A stretch of DNA of 64,000 nucleotides from Patescibacteria group bacterium (GTDB lineage: Bacteria; Patescibacteriota; Patescibacteriia; 2-12-FULL-57-11): assembly GCA_004297205.1 (NCBI GenBank), contig SCUL01000002.1:786893-850892 (forward strand), given 5' to 3'. The number at the start of each line of letters is the position of its first letter. Positions within the stretch are counted from its first letter, which is position 1. A program made the translations under genes and the position numbers. This document shows positions 40,283 to 47,195 of this stretch, in pieces. The notes below the pieces were generated by a model. The model made no database searches and had not been told where the DNA came from. It saw only the letters and a program-made list of their open reading frames with translations.

Positions 40283-40858
40283 TTAGGCGGAAACCGGCGC
40301 GATTTCGAGCTGGCGCATCGCTGCGCGCAGCGACTGGTGGAATCCTTCGAGCGGGACGCCGTCGTTCTGCACGTTGTAGGCGGCCATCCCCATGAGCAGC
40401 AAGATGCCCCGCTCCGTCGGGCTCTCCTCCCAGGCGCGGAACTGCGCGAAGGTCATCTGCCGCTCGTCCGGCTTCTCCGCCCGGCCGAGGCAGCGCATCC
40501 AACGCAGCTCGGCGTTGGCGCAGATCGCGACCAGCCGGAAGCCGGGGAGATCGACGAGCGCGTTGACTTGCCGGATGAAGCGGAAGCCCTCCGTCACGAC
40601 GAGCCGGGCGGGATCCGCCTCCACCCGCTCGCGCATGGCGCGGGCCAGCGGATCCTCGTTGGACCCGGAACCGCTCAGCTCGGCCCCGAGCGCGACCAGG
40701 GCCTCCCGCGTGTGCGGGATGTTCCGCTTCGTCGCCTCCTCGCGGACGAGGTCGCCGAAGGCATGGCGGCCGGCGCCGAACTCCCGCTCCAGGAATGTCG
40801 CCGCCGTGGTTTTGCCGGCGCCGGGCAATCCGACCAGTCCGATGATGACTTTGGGCAT
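40283..40858 (-). CDS. T4-gp1-like dNMP kinase, paralog of 32754..33332
   Basis: GLVGLPGAGKTTAATFL...FGDLVREEA, ...VTEGFRFIRQVNAL..., ...AICANAELRWMRCLGRAEKPDERQMTFAQFRAWEESPTE, collinear with the other copy. Confidence 0.6.
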   Translation of the reverse strand: MPKVIIGLVGLPGAGKTTAATFLEREFGAGRHAFGDLVREEATKRNIPHTREALVALGAELSGSGSNEDPLARAMRERVEADPARLVVTEGFRFIRQVNALVDLPGFRLVAICANAELRWMRCLGRAEKPDERQMTFAQFRAWEESPTERGILLLMGMAAYNVQNDGVPLEGFHQSLRAAMRQLEIAPVSA

Positions 40859-40926
40859 ATCTCCTCCCGCGTCAGATGTAGCGTACGGGGACGCGCCGGT
40901 CAATGCCGCATGATATACTGCGTGCG

Positions 40927-41793
40927 ATGGCCTTCATCCCCAACAACACGACGCCCGACAACCTCAGCGAGCAACAGTTTCAGGCGGCCAGCTGGTACGT
41001 CGAGCACAAGCTGCAGCTCAAGGCGGCACTGACCGTCTTTTTGGTGGTCTGGTGCGCGGCTTTCGGCGGCTACGCCATCTGGGGAATGGTGAAGCTGTTC
41101 CTGATCGAATATCCGGGCTATCGCCAGATGCAGCGCGATGCCGGCGTGAACTACGTGAATTTTGCGGCACTCGAGAACGCCCGCCCGATCGACGTGCGCA
41201 CGGTGCAGGTGTTCGCCGCCGGTGCCGGCAAGGCCGACGCCGTGGCCACCGTCCGCAACCCCAACGCCCGCTTCGCCGCGACCTTCCGCTACCAGTTCGT
41301 GGGCGAAGGCGCGACGCCGTCGGAACTCGAGGGTTTCCTCCTGCCCGGCGAAGAAAAACCGCTGCTCTCCCTCGGCATCCCGACGCAAACGTCTTTCCGC
41401 AGCGCGCGGCTCGAAATCCGCGACGTGCAATGGGCACGGCTCGACGCCCACGAGATTCCCGATTGGGCGGCCTACCGCACGGCGCGCATGGCGCTCTCCG
41501 GCGAGGAGGTCGTCTTCACGCCCGCGCAAACCCAGGGCCAGGTGTCGCGCGTCACCTTCACTGTCAAGAACGCTTCGGCCTACTCGTATTGGAACGTCCG
41601 TTTCATCGTCCTCTTGTACCGGGGCCAGTCCATCGCGGCCGTGAACGCCATCGACCTCTCCAGCCTGCGGACGGGGGAGAGCCGTCCGGCATCCGTCACC
41701 TGGTTTGAAAACGTTCCCTCCGTCACGAAAACCGAGATCCGTCCGGAAGTGAACATTTTGGACCAGTCTGCATTCATTGCGCCGGCGGGTTGA
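40927..41793 (+). CDS. hypothetical membrane-anchored protein (one TM helix, extracytoplasmic domain)
   Basis: ~288 aa; alternative ATG at 40903; TATACT at 40914-40919 lies 7 nt before the 40927 ATG, suggesting a leaderless transcript. Confidence 0.45.
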   Translation: MAFIPNNTTPDNLSEQQFQAASWYVEHKLQLKAALTVFLVVWCAAFGGYAIWGMVKLFLIEYPGYRQMQRDAGVNYVNFAALENARPIDVRTVQVFAAGAGKADAVATVRNPNARFAATFRYQFVGEGATPSELEGFLLPGEEKPLLSLGIPTQTSFRSARLEIRDVQWARLDAHEIPDWAAYRTARMALSGEEVVFTPAQTQGQVSRVTFTVKNASAYSYWNVRFIVLLYRGQSIAAVNAIDLSSLRTGESRPASVTWFENVPSVTKTEIRPEVNILDQSAFIAPAG

Positions 41794-41883
41794 GCGCGCG
41801 CGACCCATTGACGCCGCGGGCTTTTTTTGATACATCGCAGATACGACATTCGCTGATAAGCAGAACAGCGGTGGAGGTAGAAG

Positions 41884-42843
41884 GTGAAACTGTCGGAACC
41901 CTATCAGGAGATCGTGGATTCCTGCCGTATCGGCAGCACGGACCTGGTGGAGTTTCCCGCACCAGGTTCACGCAACCGCATCTTTGCAAAGCTCGAGTAT
42001 CAGAACCACACGGGTAGTCATTACGATCGGGTCTACCCCTGGCTGCTCGACCAGCTCGAGCGGGAGGGGAAGATCCACCCCGCCCACTCGATACTCGTAG
42101 AGACGACCTCGGGTAACGCGGGGATATCATGCGGCTTCGTCGCTCAGCGTCGCGGCTATCGCACCATCATCTTCACGCCAGCCGGAGCCCGTCCGCGTTG
42201 CAACCAGTTGATGCGCGGATACGGGGTCGACGTCCGAGAGGTCTCCGGCGCCGACTACGTCGCCGATGCTCGGGACGCGATGGTCACACTCCTGCGTGAA
42301 CACGTCGATGCGCGCAGCGGAGGGTTCCGGATGTACTATTCGCCGAACCACTCCCAGCTGGAGATATCATGCAAGGCGCTTGTGCCGATCGTCACCGAGG
42401 CGCTGGCGCAGGCCGGAGGGTCGTTCGATTGCTTTATCGGCGCCGCCGGGAATGGGTCGACGCTCCGGGGAATGGGGGATGCGTTGCGTCGCGACAACCC
42501 GAAGATCCGAATGTTCGGCTTCGATCCGGCCGCGGCCCCGAACGCCTACCAGATCAAGTACGGGAGGATTCCAGGGCACACGCCGCGCGTTCACCAGCTG
42601 TTTGGGGTCGGTGTCTGGGATGTCGAGTTCCCGCACCTGACCTACGCCGTGCGACAGCTGCTCGAAGACGTGATGATCGTCGAGGACGAACAGTGGCGTC
42701 AGACACAGCTGGAGCTGAGGGCGATCGGGTACGACGTGGGCAACACGTCCGCGGCCGCGTACCACCTCGCTCGCGACTTTTGCCGCCGTCACGACAACCA
42801 GCGTATCCTCATCGTCTTCTACGATGCCGCCGACCACTACTGA
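41884..42843 (+). CDS. tryptophan-synthase-beta/cysteine-synthase-fold (PLP fold type II) protein in which the canonical PLP lysine is replaced by Tyr
   Basis: AKLEYQNHTGSHYDR aligns by eye with CysK AKVESRNPSFSVKCR (K->Y); Gly-rich loop GAAGNGSTLRG; 319 aa. Confidence 0.6.
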   Translation: MKLSEPYQEIVDSCRIGSTDLVEFPAPGSRNRIFAKLEYQNHTGSHYDRVYPWLLDQLEREGKIHPAHSILVETTSGNAGISCGFVAQRRGYRTIIFTPAGARPRCNQLMRGYGVDVREVSGADYVADARDAMVTLLREHVDARSGGFRMYYSPNHSQLEISCKALVPIVTEALAQAGGSFDCFIGAAGNGSTLRGMGDALRRDNPKIRMFGFDPAAAPNAYQIKYGRIPGHTPRVHQLFGVGVWDVEFPHLTYAVRQLLEDVMIVEDEQWRQTQLELRAIGYDVGNTSAAAYHLARDFCRRHDNQRILIVFYDAADHY

Positions 42844-42851
42844 GGTCGGCA

Positions 42852-42880
42852 CCCCACGTCCGCACGTGGGTCGTTTTTTA
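42852..42880 (+). terminator. intrinsic terminator CCCACGT-ccgc-ACGTGGG + TCGTTTTTTAT
   Basis: Perfect 7-bp stem plus T-run right after the stop at 42843. Confidence 0.65.
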
Positions 42881-42935: not shown

Positions 42936-44072
42936 ATGATCCGCCGGACCATCCGCGCCGTCCGCGATTTTGACTGGGTGCTGTTTGCAGCCATGGTTTC
43001 GCTCGTGGCCGTGGGCATGGCGGCGATCGCCAGCGTCACCTTGTCGCAAGCCACGCCCGACTTCGGCGGCCTCCTCAAACAGGGTGCCGCCTTCGTGCTG
43101 GGGTTGGTTCTCGTGTTCGTGGTGGGGGCCATGAACTACCGGGCCTTCGAACCGGCCGCGCGCATCTTTTATCTGCTCGGCGCGGCGTTGCTGGTCGCCG
43201 TGCTGTTCGTGGGGCAGACGGTGCGCGGCACCACCGGTTGGTTCGCCATCGCCGGCTGGAGCTTCCAACCGGTCGAAGCGGCCAAGATCGTGCTCGTCCT
43301 TTTTCTGGCGCGCTACTTTTCTCACCATGCCTACCAACGCGATCTGCGGTCGCTGGTCGGCAGCGGCATCGGCGCGCTGCTGCTCGTGGGGTTGACCCTG
43401 CTGCAGCCGGACTTCGGCTCAGCCATGGTGCTGCTTGCGGTGTGGGTCGCCCTGCTGCTTTTGTCCGGCACGCGCCGCAGTTACGTGGTGACGCTGCTGG
43501 GACTCGCGGTCGTGAGCGCGGTGGTCGCTTGGATGTTCGTCCTGAAACCCTACCAGCACGAGCGCATCCTGACCTTCCTCGATCCCAGCCGCGATCCGCT
43601 CGGCAGGGGATACAACCTGACGCAATCCGTGATCGCGGTCGGCTCCGGCGGCCTGTTCGGCCGCGGACTCGGCTTCGGCTCGCAGAGCCAGCTGCGGTTC
43701 CTGCCCGAAGCGCAGACCGATTTCATCTTCGCGGTGGTGGCGGAGGAGATGGGCTTCATCGCCGTCACGGCGGTGCTCGCGCTCTACGCGCTTCTCGTTT
43801 GGCGGGCCGTCCGTCTGGCGCGCCTCGCGACCGACACCTTCACCGCCCATGTCGCCGCCGGCATCGCCATCCTGTTCACCATCCAGATCGCCATCAACGT
43901 CGGGATGAACATGGGGCTCATGCCGGTCACCGGCATCGCCCTGCCCTTCATCTCTTATGGCGGGTCCTCCCTGCTGTTTTCCATGATCATGGTGGGGATT
44001 CTCCAGAGCATCGCGGTGCGCCAGCGTTCGGCGGCGCTGACCACCATTGACGTGCTGGAGCGCGGATGGTAA
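42936..44072 (+). CDS. SEDS-family peptidoglycan glycosyltransferase (RodA/FtsW)
   Basis: 378 aa from ATG MIRRTIRAVRDFDWVLF; ~10 TM helices; conserved SEDS motifs (QPSEFAK-like FQPVEAAKI; ...PEAQTDFIFAV...; GLMPVTGIALPFISYGGSS). Confidence 0.8.
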   Translation: MIRRTIRAVRDFDWVLFAAMVSLVAVGMAAIASVTLSQATPDFGGLLKQGAAFVLGLVLVFVVGAMNYRAFEPAARIFYLLGAALLVAVLFVGQTVRGTTGWFAIAGWSFQPVEAAKIVLVLFLARYFSHHAYQRDLRSLVGSGIGALLLVGLTLLQPDFGSAMVLLAVWVALLLLSGTRRSYVVTLLGLAVVSAVVAWMFVLKPYQHERILTFLDPSRDPLGRGYNLTQSVIAVGSGGLFGRGLGFGSQSQLRFLPEAQTDFIFAVVAEEMGFIAVTAVLALYALLVWRAVRLARLATDTFTAHVAAGIAILFTIQIAINVGMNMGLMPVTGIALPFISYGGSSLLFSMIMVGILQSIAVRQRSAALTTIDVLERGW

Positions 44073-44115
44073 GGTCGGGCGCGATGGGCTACGCTTGAAG
44101 GGCTTATTTGCGCCC

Positions 44116-44451
44116 ATGCCCAAGCGCCGCAACCATCCGCAGCACGCCTCTCCGGACGGGGTGACCCACCTCGCCGAGTGTCCGTTGTGCGCCGCGAGCT
44201 ACGATCCGCACCGGGCCCGCGTGCTCGGCAAAAACGGCGAGGAGCGCCTGCTCCACGTCGCCTGCGGCGGCTGCGGCAACGCCATGCTGGCGCTCGTCGT
44301 GGTGACGTCCGCCGGCGTCTCGTCGGTGGGACTCATCACGGATCTGTCCTTCGAAGACGCACAGCGCTTCCGCGAAGCGTCGCCGGTCTCCGCGGACCAC
44401 GTGCTGGCGGCCCACGTGCTTCCGGCCGACATCATTTCCAGACTCCTGTAA
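44116..44451 (+). CDS. hypothetical zinc-ribbon protein
   Basis: 111 aa from the internal ATG; CPLC ... CGGCG Cys pairs. Confidence 0.4.
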   Translation: MPKRRNHPQHASPDGVTHLAECPLCAASYDPHRARVLGKNGEERLLHVACGGCGNAMLALVVVTSAGVSSVGLITDLSFEDAQRFREASPVSADHVLAAHVLPADIISRLL

Positions 44452-44458
44452 TACCGTT

Positions 44459-45181
44459 ATGCAGCAGACGATCACGCTTTCCGCAAAAACCCGCACCGTC
44501 ACCGGCAAACCGGTGAAACTTCTGCGCGCCAAGGGCGTGCTGCCGGCCGTGATCTACGGCTTCGGCACCGATCCGCGCAATTTGGAAATCGACGCCCGCG
44601 CCTTCGCCAAGGCGTTCGAGGCCGCCGGGGAATCCACGCTCGTCGACGTCGTCGTCGACGGCGGCGCCCCGGTCAAGGCGCTCATCCAGGACATCCAGCA
44701 GGACCCGATGACCAGCCGCATCAGCCACGCGGACCTGCGCGCCGTGAACATGAAGGAGAAGACCACCGCCGACATCCCGCTCGAACTCGTCGGCGAAGCG
44801 CCGGTCGCCAAGGGCCAGGCCGTGGTCATCACCAAGGTCCACGAATCGCTCGAAGTGGAGGGTCTGCCGGGCGACCTGGTCTCCCAGATCATCGTCGACC
44901 TCTCCGGTCTCACCGAGATCGGCCAGACCATCCGCGTCCGCGACCTGAAACTCCCGGCCGGCCTCACGGCCGTGGCCGACGCCGACGACGTCGTCGTGAC
45001 GGTCGCCGCCGCACTGACCGAGGAACAGATCAAAGCCATGGAAACCGCGCAGGTCGGCGACGTCTCGCAGATCGAGGTCGTCGAAGGCAAGAAGAAGGAA
45101 GGCGAGGAGGGCGTCGAGGAAGGCGCGGCGGCTCCAGCGGCGGAAGCCAAAGAGGCCAAGAAGGAAGCCAAGAAAGAATAA
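44459..45181 (+). CDS. rplY: 50S ribosomal protein L25 / general stress protein Ctc (long form with acidic Lys-rich tail)
   Basis: MQQTITLSAKTRTVTGKPVKLLRAKGVLPAVIYG... canonical L25 N-domain plus Ctc C-domain. Confidence 0.85.
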   Translation: MQQTITLSAKTRTVTGKPVKLLRAKGVLPAVIYGFGTDPRNLEIDARAFAKAFEAAGESTLVDVVVDGGAPVKALIQDIQQDPMTSRISHADLRAVNMKEKTTADIPLELVGEAPVAKGQAVVITKVHESLEVEGLPGDLVSQIIVDLSGLTEIGQTIRVRDLKLPAGLTAVADADDVVVTVAAALTEEQIKAMETAQVGDVSQIEVVEGKKKEGEEGVEEGAAAPAAEAKEAKKEAKKE

Positions 45182-45185
45182 GAGC

Positions 45186-46274
45186 GTGCGGATCCCCACG
45201 AAACAACAGATCATTGCCTGGGCGCGGACCAACCCCCGCCTGGCCATCGGCGCCGGCGCAGTCTGCGCCGGCGTTCTTGTAGCGGCGCTCGCCAGCATCG
45301 GCATCCTCTTGTTCGCGCCCAAGCCGGATTTGACGCCCTTTGACGCATCACCCGCGCCCGTCGCGGAAGAACCGACCGGCCGCAACTGGCTCGACGGCAC
45401 GCCGGACGACGGCGAGCCGCTGCGCCCCTTCGCGGTGATGATCGAAAACCACGGCGACAGCCGGCCGCAGTCGGGACTCTCCGCCGCCAAGCTCGTGTTC
45501 GAGGCGCCGGTCGAAGGCGGCATCACCCGCTTCCTCGCCGTCTACGCCGCGAGCGGCACGGTCCGCGAAATCGGCCCGGTCAGGAGCGCGCGTCCCTATT
45601 ATTTGGATTGGGTGCTCGAGCTGGGCGCGGACTACGTGCACGTCGGCGGCTCCCCCGAGGCCTTCACCAAGCTCGCCCGGCTGCGCCTGCACGACATCGA
45701 CGAGTTCGCCTACGGCACCGCGGCGTTCTGGCGTTCGTCCCGTCGGTACGCGCCGCACAACACCTACACGTCGGTGGAGCTTTTGAACGGCGTGCGCGAG
45801 GAGCGCGCCTGGGCGGCGACGTCCACGGCCGCTCCCTGGCGCTACGTCGATCCGCAGGCGCCGGAAGAGCGGCCGACCTCGACGCCGAACCTCGTGATCG
45901 ACTTTTCTTCGCCGACCTATCGCGTCGAGTGGCGCTACCAACACGACGACAATGCCTGGCGCCGTTTCCAGGCCGGCGCGCCGCACGCCGACGTCGACGG
46001 CACGCCGATCCTGGCGGCGAACGTCGCCGTCATCCGCACCGAGACGCAGGTGCTCGACGCAGTCGGCCGCCTCAAGTTGCGCACCGTCGGCTCCGGCAAG
46101 GCTTGGGTCTTCCGTGACGGCCGCATGATCACCGGCCGCTGGAAAAAACTGGCCGCGGAGGAGCGCATCCGCTTCGAGACGGTCGACGGCAAGGAAATTC
46201 CCTTCGTTCCCGGACCAACATGGATTGAAGTCACGACCGCGGACATGCCGACCCGCTTTGGCGCGCCGCTCTGA
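45186..46274 (+). CDS. DUF3048 (YerB-like) domain membrane-anchored protein
   Basis: N-terminal TM helix; signature VMIENHGDSRPQSGLSAA..., ...GGITRFLAVY... Confidence 0.7.
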   Translation: MRIPTKQQIIAWARTNPRLAIGAGAVCAGVLVAALASIGILLFAPKPDLTPFDASPAPVAEEPTGRNWLDGTPDDGEPLRPFAVMIENHGDSRPQSGLSAAKLVFEAPVEGGITRFLAVYAASGTVREIGPVRSARPYYLDWVLELGADYVHVGGSPEAFTKLARLRLHDIDEFAYGTAAFWRSSRRYAPHNTYTSVELLNGVREERAWAATSTAAPWRYVDPQAPEERPTSTPNLVIDFSSPTYRVEWRYQHDDNAWRRFQAGAPHADVDGTPILAANVAVIRTETQVLDAVGRLKLRTVGSGKAWVFRDGRMITGRWKKLAAEERIRFETVDGKEIPFVPGPTWIEVTTADMPTRFGAPL

Positions 46275-46304: not shown

Positions 46305-47195
46305 TTATGGACGGATCAGCGCGACGCGCCAGCGTCCCGAGAGATCTTTTTTGAAATCAATGCGGCCCTTCGGGAAGAAGCGCTTCACCACGGCCGGCAA
46401 CTTTTTCTTTTGGGAAGGATCGATCTCGATGATGATCGGACAGCGCCACACCCGTGCGACGATTTGGACAAACAGGGCGCGGTAGGCATCGAGGCCGTCG
46501 CGGCCGCCGTCGAGGGCGGAGCGCGGTTCGTAGCGTTTCACGTCCGGCGGCGCACTGCGCCAGATGGCAGTAGGAAGATAGGGAAGATTCGCGACGATCA
46601 GATCCGGCGCGAGTCGCGGCGGAAGCAGGTTCGCTTTCACGAACCGTACGCGGCGCGTCAGGTCGAGGAGTCGGGCGTTTTTTCGAGCGAGCCGCAGCGC
46701 AGCGGGGGAGATGTCGGTGGCGATGACGCGCGCCGTCGGCAGGTGCTTCGCGAGCGTGAGCGCGATGGCACCCGAGCCGGTGCCGATGTCGATGATCGTT
46801 GCGCCATGTCCATCCACGCCGCGGGTCCTGCCGCTCGGCCATTCCGCCGTGCTCCTTCGTGCGCGCGGCGGGAGCCCTGGCCCCGCGTCACCCGCGGCTG
46901 TCATTGCACGTACTGTTTCCACCAGCAGCTCCGTCTCGGGGCGCGGAATCAGCACGCCCGGCGCGACCGCGAGCGTCAGATCGTAAAAATGTTTGTGGCC
47001 GAGGAGGAGCGCGACCGGTTCATGTTTCCGGCGGCGCGCCGCGAGCGCGCGAAACCGGCGGAGTGCCGCCGGTCGGATGCGTCCCTCGGGATGCGCGAGG
47101 AGATGTTCGCGGGTTGTCCGCAGTGCGTGCGCCAGCAACAGTTCCGCGTCGAGCGGATCGATCCCACGTGTCCGTAATGCCTCGCCGACGGTCAT
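46305..47195 (-). CDS. prmC: release factor glutamine N5-methyltransferase PrmC/HemK
   Basis: SAM motif IIDIGTGSGAIAL, substrate motif NLPY (NPPY variant), directly downstream of prfA. Confidence 0.8.
   Translation of the reverse strand: MTVGEALRTRGIDPLDAELLLAHALRTTREHLLAHPEGRIRPAALRRFRALAARRRKHEPVALLLGHKHFYDLTLAVAPGVLIPRPETELLVETVRAMTAAGDAGPGLPPRARRSTAEWPSGRTRGVDGHGATIIDIGTGSGAIALTLAKHLPTARVIATDISPAALRLARKNARLLDLTRRVRFVKANLLPPRLAPDLIVANLPYLPTAIWRSAPPDVKRYEPRSALDGGRDGLDAYRALFVQIVARVWRCPIIIEIDPSQKKKLPAVVKRFFPKGRIDFKKDLSGRWRVALIRP

Follow-up and report, generated by a model that had tools for sequence, protein, structure and literature searches.

A covalent link between the cofactor and an active-site lysine, the internal aldimine, is the textbook hallmark of enzymes that use pyridoxal 5′-phosphate (PLP). 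What is to be made of a protein that has the fold of such an enzyme and lacks the lysine? The question is raised by a gene in contig SCUL01000002.1 of a Patescibacteria group bacterium (GenBank assembly GCA_004297205.1), of which we analyzed a stretch of 64,000 nucleotides (hereafter, the window; positions are counted from its first letter). The open reading frame (ORF) at 41884-42843 on the forward strand has a GTG start and encodes a 319-residue protein with the fold of cysteine synthase (CysK) and a tyrosine where the lysine would be expected (hereafter, we refer to this protein and its relatives without the lysine as “Lys-less”).

Sequence comparison identifies the exchange of tyrosine for lysine as the hallmark of a large, conserved, monophyletic and uncharacterized family. 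Our favored reading, to which we give a probability of about 0.4, is that the protein would be an amino-acid-capturing sensor module. We set out below the evidence for the family, the state of its cofactor pocket and the gene neighborhoods of its members, against which this reading and its rivals can be weighed.

Tyrosine in place of the Schiff-base lysine

By both sequence and fold, the protein belongs to the fold-type-II PLP superfamily. Its match to the Pfam family PALP (PF00291) extends over residues 16-313 (E = 7.8e-42; 144 bits versus a cutoff of 35), and an AlphaFold2 model computed from a 49-sequence alignment has a mean predicted local distance difference test score (pLDDT) of 97.1 and a predicted template modeling score (pTM) of 0.93. 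The model superposes on CysK structures with template modeling (TM) scores of 0.82-0.85. A Foldseek search of the PDB returned CysK (O-acetylserine sulfhydrylase, OASS), beta-cyanoalanine synthase, cystathionine beta-synthase (CBS) and SbnA as the best matches (TM 0.80-0.85, 20-27% identity), and no solved structure closer than these CysK-type matches. Profile alignment and structure prediction had been proposed as checks in a first-pass annotation, made from the sequence alone, that saw a fold-type-II protein here, and both confirm the membership. The protein has the same two-domain fold as CysK, CysM and CBS (TM 0.82-0.85) and the same order of motifs: xKxE...NPxxSxxDR, the TSGN loop, the Gly-rich loop, HxxxGxG, the serine at PLP N1 and the C-terminal tyrosine. 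Identity to the solved CysK structures is 21-27%.

The departure lies in the N-terminal signature. Residues A35 to R49 read AKLEYQNHTGSHYDR, and within them S45-H46-Y47-D48-R49 (42016-42030, forward strand) places Tyr47 at the position of the Schiff-base lysine in the S-x-K-D-R of CysK and CysM. We take this lysine to be K41 in Salmonella CysK, along with T68-T72 as the Asn loop, Q142 as the carboxylate ligand, G176-T180 as the phosphate loop and S272 as the N1 ligand. Three alignment methods agree on the register: phmmer sets G-S-H-Y-D-R on the G-S-V-K-D-R of solved CysK structures with high posterior confidence, and the same result comes from hmmalign with the family profile and from profile-profile alignment by hhalign against Lys-bearing relatives. 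All three bear out the first-pass annotation, which had read a fold-type-II signature with tyrosine in place of the lysine. It had also allowed for a shifted alignment or a sequencing error, and neither possibility survives. Lysine is absent from positions 41-52 in all 172 Tyr-bearing relatives that we collected, so an alignment shift cannot restore it; among them, only Lys36 reaches a lysine conservation of 80% or more, and this residue belongs to the xKxE motif shared with canonical enzymes. The Tyr47 codon, TAC (42022-42024), is two base changes away from either lysine codon (AAA or AAG), and the same sequence, over 2,960 bp and with this codon included, is found in another public assembly (Logan SRR8426588); together these exclude a sequencing error. 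Every ortholog, from 84% to 30% identity, has the tyrosine.

How widespread is this protein? A word-indexed search returned 54 relatives, one of which (P0001, recorded as ‘pyridoxal-phosphate dependent enzyme [Patescibacteria group bacterium]’) is identical to the query; His46, Tyr47, Asp48 and Arg49 are near-invariant in their alignment. When 1.84 billion representatives were searched with a HMMER profile, 1,091 proteins matched at E ≤ 1e-30. We counted the residues in the lysine column over 196 collected relatives. Tyrosine stands there in 172 of the 196 (S-H-Y-D-R), so that the check for its conservation among orthologs comes out clearly in its favor. The remainder have lysine (10; canonical S-V-K-D-R proteins of the CBS/CysK type and a small S-H-K-D-R clade), histidine (6; S-H-H-D-R), phenylalanine (5) or a gap (3). 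Clustered at 50% identity, the family comprises at least 172 clusters. In a rough neighbor-joining tree rooted on a canonical member, the canonical V-K proteins are followed by the S-H-K-D-R clade and then by one Lys-less clade, with the Phe and His variants branching inside it. This topology suggests that the lysine was lost once.

The S-H-K-D-R sister clade (P0153, P0176, P0178) contains the nearest Lys-bearing relatives. It has His46, A79 and the Y313-D314 motif in common with the Lys-less proteins and differs from them in keeping both the lysine and a glutamine at position 156; its members score ~210-220 bits on CysK models, compared with ~104 for the query, and the clade is likewise uncharacterized. 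One member, P0176 (754 aa), is an unusual fusion of PALP, S-adenosylmethionine methyltransferase and DHBP synthase (RibB) domains.

The hosts of the Lys-less proteins span bacteria and archaea, many of them uncultivated. They include lineages of the Patescibacteria type (Berkelbacteria, Andersenbacteria, Falkowbacteria, Saccharibacteria), DPANN archaea (Pacearchaeota, Iainarchaeum, Micrarchaeota) and, among others, Marinimicrobia/Fidelibacterota, Latescibacterota, Planctomycetota, Caldithrix, Arcobacter and the cultured Magnetospirillum sulfuroxidans. We rejected a viral origin: the homologs found in IMG/VR are all canonical and Lys-bearing, and none has S-H-Y-D-R. Nineteen viral contigs from that database (L048-L066) carry such CysK-like genes, with NP[ST]GS[VI]KDR and EATSGNAG motifs, and these look like auxiliary metabolic genes.

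Curated models place the protein outside the cysteine synthases. The NCBIfam scores are far below the cutoffs (cysKM, 103.9 versus 344; cysK, 93.6 versus 351; CysM, 79 versus 413), and we rejected an assignment to a curated cysteine-synthase family; no NCBIfam model scored above its cutoff for the query, the S-H-K-D-R sister clade or the variants. Judged by its residues, the 319-aa protein is not a cysteine synthase, because the defining lysine and glutamine are absent and it is unable to form an internal aldimine; for all its CysK scaffold, it lacks what defines CysM and CBS as well. The family is apparently undescribed. We found no curated model and no paper on it, and the literature that we searched, which left out most subscription journals, held precedents only and no account of a CysK-like family with tyrosine for lysine.

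A cofactor pocket kept around the missing lysine

The remaining contacts to PLP are largely retained. The Asn loop, a ligand of the substrate carboxylate and of PLP O3′ in CysK, is E73-T-T-S-G-N-A-G80 (42100-42123, forward strand) and aligns with EPTSGNTG of CysK; against the T-S-G-N-T of CysK and CysM, the query has T75-S76-G77-N78-A79. Within the family, G77 is conserved at 99% and E73 at 95%, and position 78 is Asn in ~61% and Ser in ~29%. The Gly-rich phosphate loop, which the first-pass annotation had described as retained, is indeed present as G189-N-G-S-T193 (42448-42462, forward strand; canonically GTGGT), with G189 conserved at 98%, N190 at 88% and G191 at 96%. Ser289 (42748-42750, forward strand) is the counterpart of the CysK serine that hydrogen-bonds to the pyridine N1 of PLP, with G-N-T-S-A-A aligned to G-I-S-S-G-A; the family has Ser at this position in ~76% and Thr in ~15% (either of the two in ~91%). 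The phosphate loop and the N1 serine thus correspond to those of CysK and CysM, and the HxxxGxG and C-terminal tyrosine motifs are also kept.

What has changed, relative to CysK, CysM and CBS, is the Schiff-base lysine (to Tyr), the carboxylate-binding glutamine (to His) and Thr177 of the phosphate loop (to Asn). A further histidine, His46, replaces V40 and is conserved at 98% among the Tyr-bearing relatives; the S-H-K-D-R sister clade already has it. Tryptophan synthase beta also has a histidine before its lysine, near the cofactor phosphate. His156 lies in the family motif N155-H156-S157 (42346-42354, forward strand) and, in the hhalign alignment, falls on the invariant glutamine of N-Q-F (Q142 of CysK). 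It is conserved at 91% in the Tyr family; the S-H-K-D-R clade has Gln there, and canonical members have Phe or Tyr according to hmmalign. The methods leave an uncertainty of about one residue in the register, with hmmalign one residue off hhalign and phmmer three to four; within that margin, the segment has no conserved glutamine corresponding to Gln142 of CysK and CysM. The five Phe variants have lost His46 in four cases and His156 in four, such that the His-Tyr-His set appears mostly to be lost as a unit in this subclade. As a working definition, we propose that the family can be recognized by S-H-Y-D-R, N-H-S and a G-N-G-[ST]-[ST] phosphate loop; the query has all three.

To judge from these residues, the pattern in the pocket is not one of decay. 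Kept contact motifs together with a fixed Tyr/His pair are what would be expected where ligand binding is conserved and the canonical chemistry is lost. Since the other PLP-contact motifs are kept, we infer that the ligand is phosphorylated and PLP-like, most simply PLP or pyridoxamine 5′-phosphate (PMP), and that one of these is probably still bound, non-covalently. Among the options of the first-pass annotation, a divergent member of fold-type II is therefore the one that stands, and a “non-PLP” protein is less favored than one that binds its cofactor without a covalent bond.

Neighboring genes and candidate roles

With the lysine gone and the pocket kept, the genes around the relatives offer the next source of evidence. 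We collected 47 loci and clustered their neighboring ORFs, which revealed five recurrent patterns. Four Marinimicrobia/Fidelibacterota loci have a 670-aa sigma-54-type AAA+ activator (Pfam Sigma54_activat, E = 8e-23, with AAA_lid_14) that starts 5-10 bp after the Lys-less gene; the activator is 107-389 bp away in two further Marinimicrobia-type loci, and one more has a fragment of it. A FadL/Toluene_X-like outer-membrane channel is encoded upstream in loci of this type, and a PutP-like Na+/solute symporter (345 bits against the PutP model, short of the cutoff) follows in three of them. Sigma-54 partners recur in a planctomycete, where the activator gene overlaps the start of the Lys-less gene, and in Latescibacterota, where an AAA_lid_14 protein adjoins it. 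In a PADLOC comparison, the sigma-54 partner resembles AAA+ models of the RtcR/PspF type.

A second arrangement is a five-gene cassette, present in at least eight loci, that encodes an HD phosphohydrolase, a phosphoenolpyruvate (PEP)-utilizer (swiveling-domain) protein, a PPDK_N protein, the Lys-less protein and a large DAC-like protein (L007 138-9452; L045 4305-11366; L046 2750-11493; L034, L038, L033 and L040; L019 2564-8939). The large protein has 550-820 aa and a DAC-like C-terminus, and it starts 13-47 bp downstream in several loci. In Magnetospirillum, the HD, PEP-utilizer and PPDK_N genes accompany the Lys-less gene. The cassette in L046 is flanked by integrases and a transposase, a BcaP-like amino-acid permease accompanies an integrase-flanked cassette in one locus, and SLATT_4, TCAD9 and CBASS-like Cap2/JAB genes adjoin the cassette in L007. 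PADLOC gave no defense-system match for the Lys-less protein or its cassette partners. From its surroundings, the cassette may be a mobile signaling or conflict module.

The two kinds of partner are linked by a segment found both in the large cassette protein and at the N-terminus of the sigma-54 activator: GISGS...HxGSNDL...DPRQS...SAYE...NFWxFPI...GxxRVVNK (hmmsearch E = 2.6e-5 to 9e-4 against 537 neighbor ORFs), probably a divergent GAF domain, to judge by sub-threshold matches. In five of the activators (L020 8152-10164, L018 9037-11034, L024 5906-7918, L025 4429-6441 and L030 8519-10531), the N-terminal 245 residues have no Pfam match and contain this segment, of ~50 residues. It occurs again in a 757-aa Arcobacter protein (L010 274-2547), in which the Lys-less domain is fused to an orphan extension of ~420 aa. 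The extension has a weak Pfam GAF match (E = 0.036) and, by eye, motifs that resemble the H-box, N-box and G2-box; searches of the PDB and for homologs found nothing for it.

Other relatives have other partners. TrmB-type regulators are encoded divergently, 93-151 bp upstream, in five loci, two from DPANN and three from Patescibacteria; the three Patescibacteria proteins are ~50% identical to the query. In Caldithrix, a ProC-like Rossmann protein adjoins the Lys-less gene, together with a PutP-like symporter, and P0123 is a fusion of the Lys-less domain to a ProC-like domain. Beside a 69%-identical ortholog, we also observed a convergent cyclodipeptide synthase gene (PF16715; L006 2125-2757) 475 bp downstream.

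How would a sensor without the lysine work? PLP (or PMP) would be held non-covalently in the conserved pocket, and an amino acid would be captured by direct formation of an aldimine with it. The adduct would be long-lived, because there is no lysine to displace it, and the output would be the ligand-induced domain closure that is typical of CysK. The protein would act as a small-molecule receptor, or input module, rather than as a high-turnover enzyme, and in other genomes its signal would be read by the product of the adjacent gene: a sigma-54 activator, a DAC-like protein with the GAF-like segment or, in Patescibacteria and DPANN, a TrmB-type regulator. Tight or overlapping spacing with three classes of signaling output, the shared segment and the Arcobacter fusion all fit such a role. 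It is possible, albeit rather unlikely, that PLP would serve here as a sensory prosthetic group, with reversible aldimine capture and domain closure as the switch for GAF-like outputs (sigma-54 activators, DAC-like cyclases) or for TrmB.

Precedents exist for parts of this scheme, and by analogy they would support it. In Salmonella OASS, the K41A mutant reportedly adopts the closed conformation with an amino acid trapped in it as an external aldimine, and C. elegans CYSL-1 is another CysK-fold regulatory partner. CysK acts as the co-sensor of the repressor CymR (PMC4961446). As in B. subtilis CysK-CymR and in CysK-CdiA-CT, where a CysK-fold protein is a ligand-responsive partner, relatives of our protein adjoin regulators and signaling proteins, here at the level of genes. 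However, the CysK proteins of those systems keep the lysine and are still enzymes, and docking of their partners relies on a C-terminal Ile tail, of which we saw none in the Lys-less protein.

Several observations weigh against a sensor. The active site is very strongly conserved across bacteria and archaea, as one would sooner expect of an enzyme than of a sensor domain, and some neighborhoods resemble a catabolic operon in which the Lys-less protein would be the only enzyme, next to a PutP-like symporter, a FadL-like channel and a ProC-like protein or fusion. The GAF assignment of the shared segment comes from sub-threshold matches only (PDE6 and cyanobacteriochrome GAF domains, E = 0.65-0.97; Pfam GAF_2, E = 0.087). 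A histidine-kinase reading of the Arcobacter fusion is without statistical support and counts as a hint only; just the G2-box region of the tail aligned, non-significantly, to an approximate EnvZ sequence. Closer to home, the gene in the window looks monocistronic and its partner would lie outside, as the 64 kb contain no GAF-like segment, no TrmB gene and no second PALP gene. Members with linked partners share only ~30-37% identity with the query, and the partner evidence, carried over to the window protein from relatives of 30-50% identity, would be correspondingly weaker.

The main rival, which we regard as slightly less probable, is that the protein is an enzyme in its own right, with a mechanism of a new type. 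It would be a fold-type-II PLP/PMP enzyme without an internal aldimine, in which Tyr47, as a tyrosinate possibly tuned by His156, would act as acid/base at C-alpha and His46 would contribute to phosphate binding; the enzyme would deaminate or beta-substitute an imported amino acid, such as a proline-related or other small one. The near-invariance of His46, Tyr47 and His156 across sequences that are only 30% identical overall speaks for catalysis, as does the joint loss of the three in most of the Phe subclade, which is the behavior of a functional triad. Geometrically, the reach of a tyrosine hydroxyl from C-alpha should be about equal to that of a lysine amine. In the Marinimicrobia-type loci, the Lys-less gene is the sole enzyme-like one among those for the FadL-like channel, the sigma-54 regulator and the PutP-like symporter, and the ProC-like fusion P0123, which complements the Caldithrix locus with its ProC-like and PutP-like proteins, is of a kind that usually joins pathway enzymes.

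Catalysis without the lysine has been described in ColD, E1 and SpnQ, sugar 3-dehydratases in which histidine replaces the catalytic lysine as acid/base and PMP is bound non-covalently (PMC8987622). These enzymes differ in being of fold-type I (the aspartate-aminotransferase type), in using His rather than Tyr and in acting on nucleotide sugars; with its fold-type II and its tyrosine, our protein is like them in principle only. The Phe and His found at position 47 in nested subclades indicate that the hydroxyl is not universally required. Without a lysine, moreover, product release would need hydrolysis and would be slow, and translational coupling to signaling proteins and the Arcobacter fusion fit a sensor better. 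The literature searched, again without most subscription journals, contained no fold-type-II enzyme of this kind, and we know of no such Lys-independent enzyme.

A third reading, that of a cofactor-less pseudoenzyme in which the CysK fold serves as a scaffold or protein-binding module, strikes us as improbable. Loss of the Schiff-base lysine is usual in non-catalytic PLP-fold proteins, among them Rv3778c (PMC12910592) and the N-terminal module of C. elegans CBS-1, a fold-type-II PALP domain that has Glu for Lys, has lost the phosphate-loop glycine and binds no PLP (PMC3316156). Asn78, the counterpart of the PLP O3′ contact in CysK, is moreover conserved in only ~61% of the family. However, the disruption of the phosphate loop that accompanies the lost lysine in CBS-1 is not seen here, where both glycines are 96-98% conserved, and the CBS-1 module is one eukaryotic paralog, whereas the present change defines a large prokaryotic family. 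The Asn loop, the Ser or Thr at N1 and SxxDR are kept as well, a histidine and a tyrosine have become newly fixed in the pocket, and a vestigial pocket would not remain so conserved from Patescibacteria to DPANN archaea.

Two further explanations can be set aside. A Tyr-derived quinone cofactor (of the topaquinone, or TPQ, type, at N-Y-D) or a His/Tyr metal site is very unlikely, with a chance of a percent or two, given that the PLP-contact motifs are retained; many of the host lineages are also thought to be anaerobic. An artifact of any kind, whether an error in sequencing or assembly, a pseudogene in decay or a misalignment that conceals an ordinary lysine, is refuted by the codon, the second assembly, an intact ORF with its ribosome-binding site and terminator, the orthologs and the three alignment methods, and we found no point in its favor.

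The gene in its window and the reach of the family

The gene itself is well delimited. A ribosome-binding site, GGAGG (41873-41877, forward strand), ends 6 nt before the GTG start, which is consistent with the N-termini of the orthologs P0002-P0004, and an intrinsic terminator with a 7-bp stem and a T-run follows the gene on the same strand (42853-42880; hairpin 42853-42870). Upstream, a GC-rich stretch followed by T7 (41794-41829, forward strand) is a possible terminator of the preceding gene, seen by eye and not called by the terminator scan; if real, it would make the Lys-less gene monocistronic, as its layout looks to be.

The surroundings of the Lys-less gene are housekeeping genes (gyrB, FtsW/RodA, L25), with FtsW/RodA next in line, beginning at 42936. 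Three small neighbors with little or no annotation encode a P-loop AAA_17/adenylate-kinase-like protein (40283-40903, reverse strand), a 296-aa protein without a Pfam match (40903-41793, forward) and a 134-aa Cys-rich protein (44047-44451, forward). Farther downstream are an L25/Ctc-like protein with, by eye, a long Lys/Glu/Ala-rich tail (44459-45181, forward), a DUF3048 protein (45186-46274, forward; Pfam E = 4e-43) and a PrmC/HemK-like methyltransferase with an NLPY motif recognized by eye (46305-47195, reverse). We found no tRNA genes and no Rfam matches in the window, and its G+C content is 61-68% throughout (1-64000), which we take to be unusually high for Patescibacteria.

What does the family mean beyond this locus? 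Exceptions to the internal aldimine are, to our knowledge, few, and are either dead domains or sugar dehydratases of the ColD/E1 kind. PLP-fold proteins without the lysine are thus not unprecedented, but a large and conserved fold-type-II family free of the internal aldimine would surprise a specialist. The members of this one come from bacteria as well as archaea, the genome-reduced Patescibacteria and DPANN among them, and in it tyrosine for lysine and histidine for glutamine have become fixed with the rest of the cofactor pocket kept. Thousands of entries now labeled ‘cysteine synthase A’ or ‘PLP-dependent enzyme’ are mis-assigned, a point of consequence when the metabolism of candidate phyla is reconstructed. 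If the family is catalytic, it would be the first class of fold-type-II PLP/PMP enzymes to work without an internal aldimine, with tyrosine as the base. Either way, it offers a testable case of a new PLP mechanism or of a new metabolite sensor linked to sigma-54, DAC-like and TrmB signaling.

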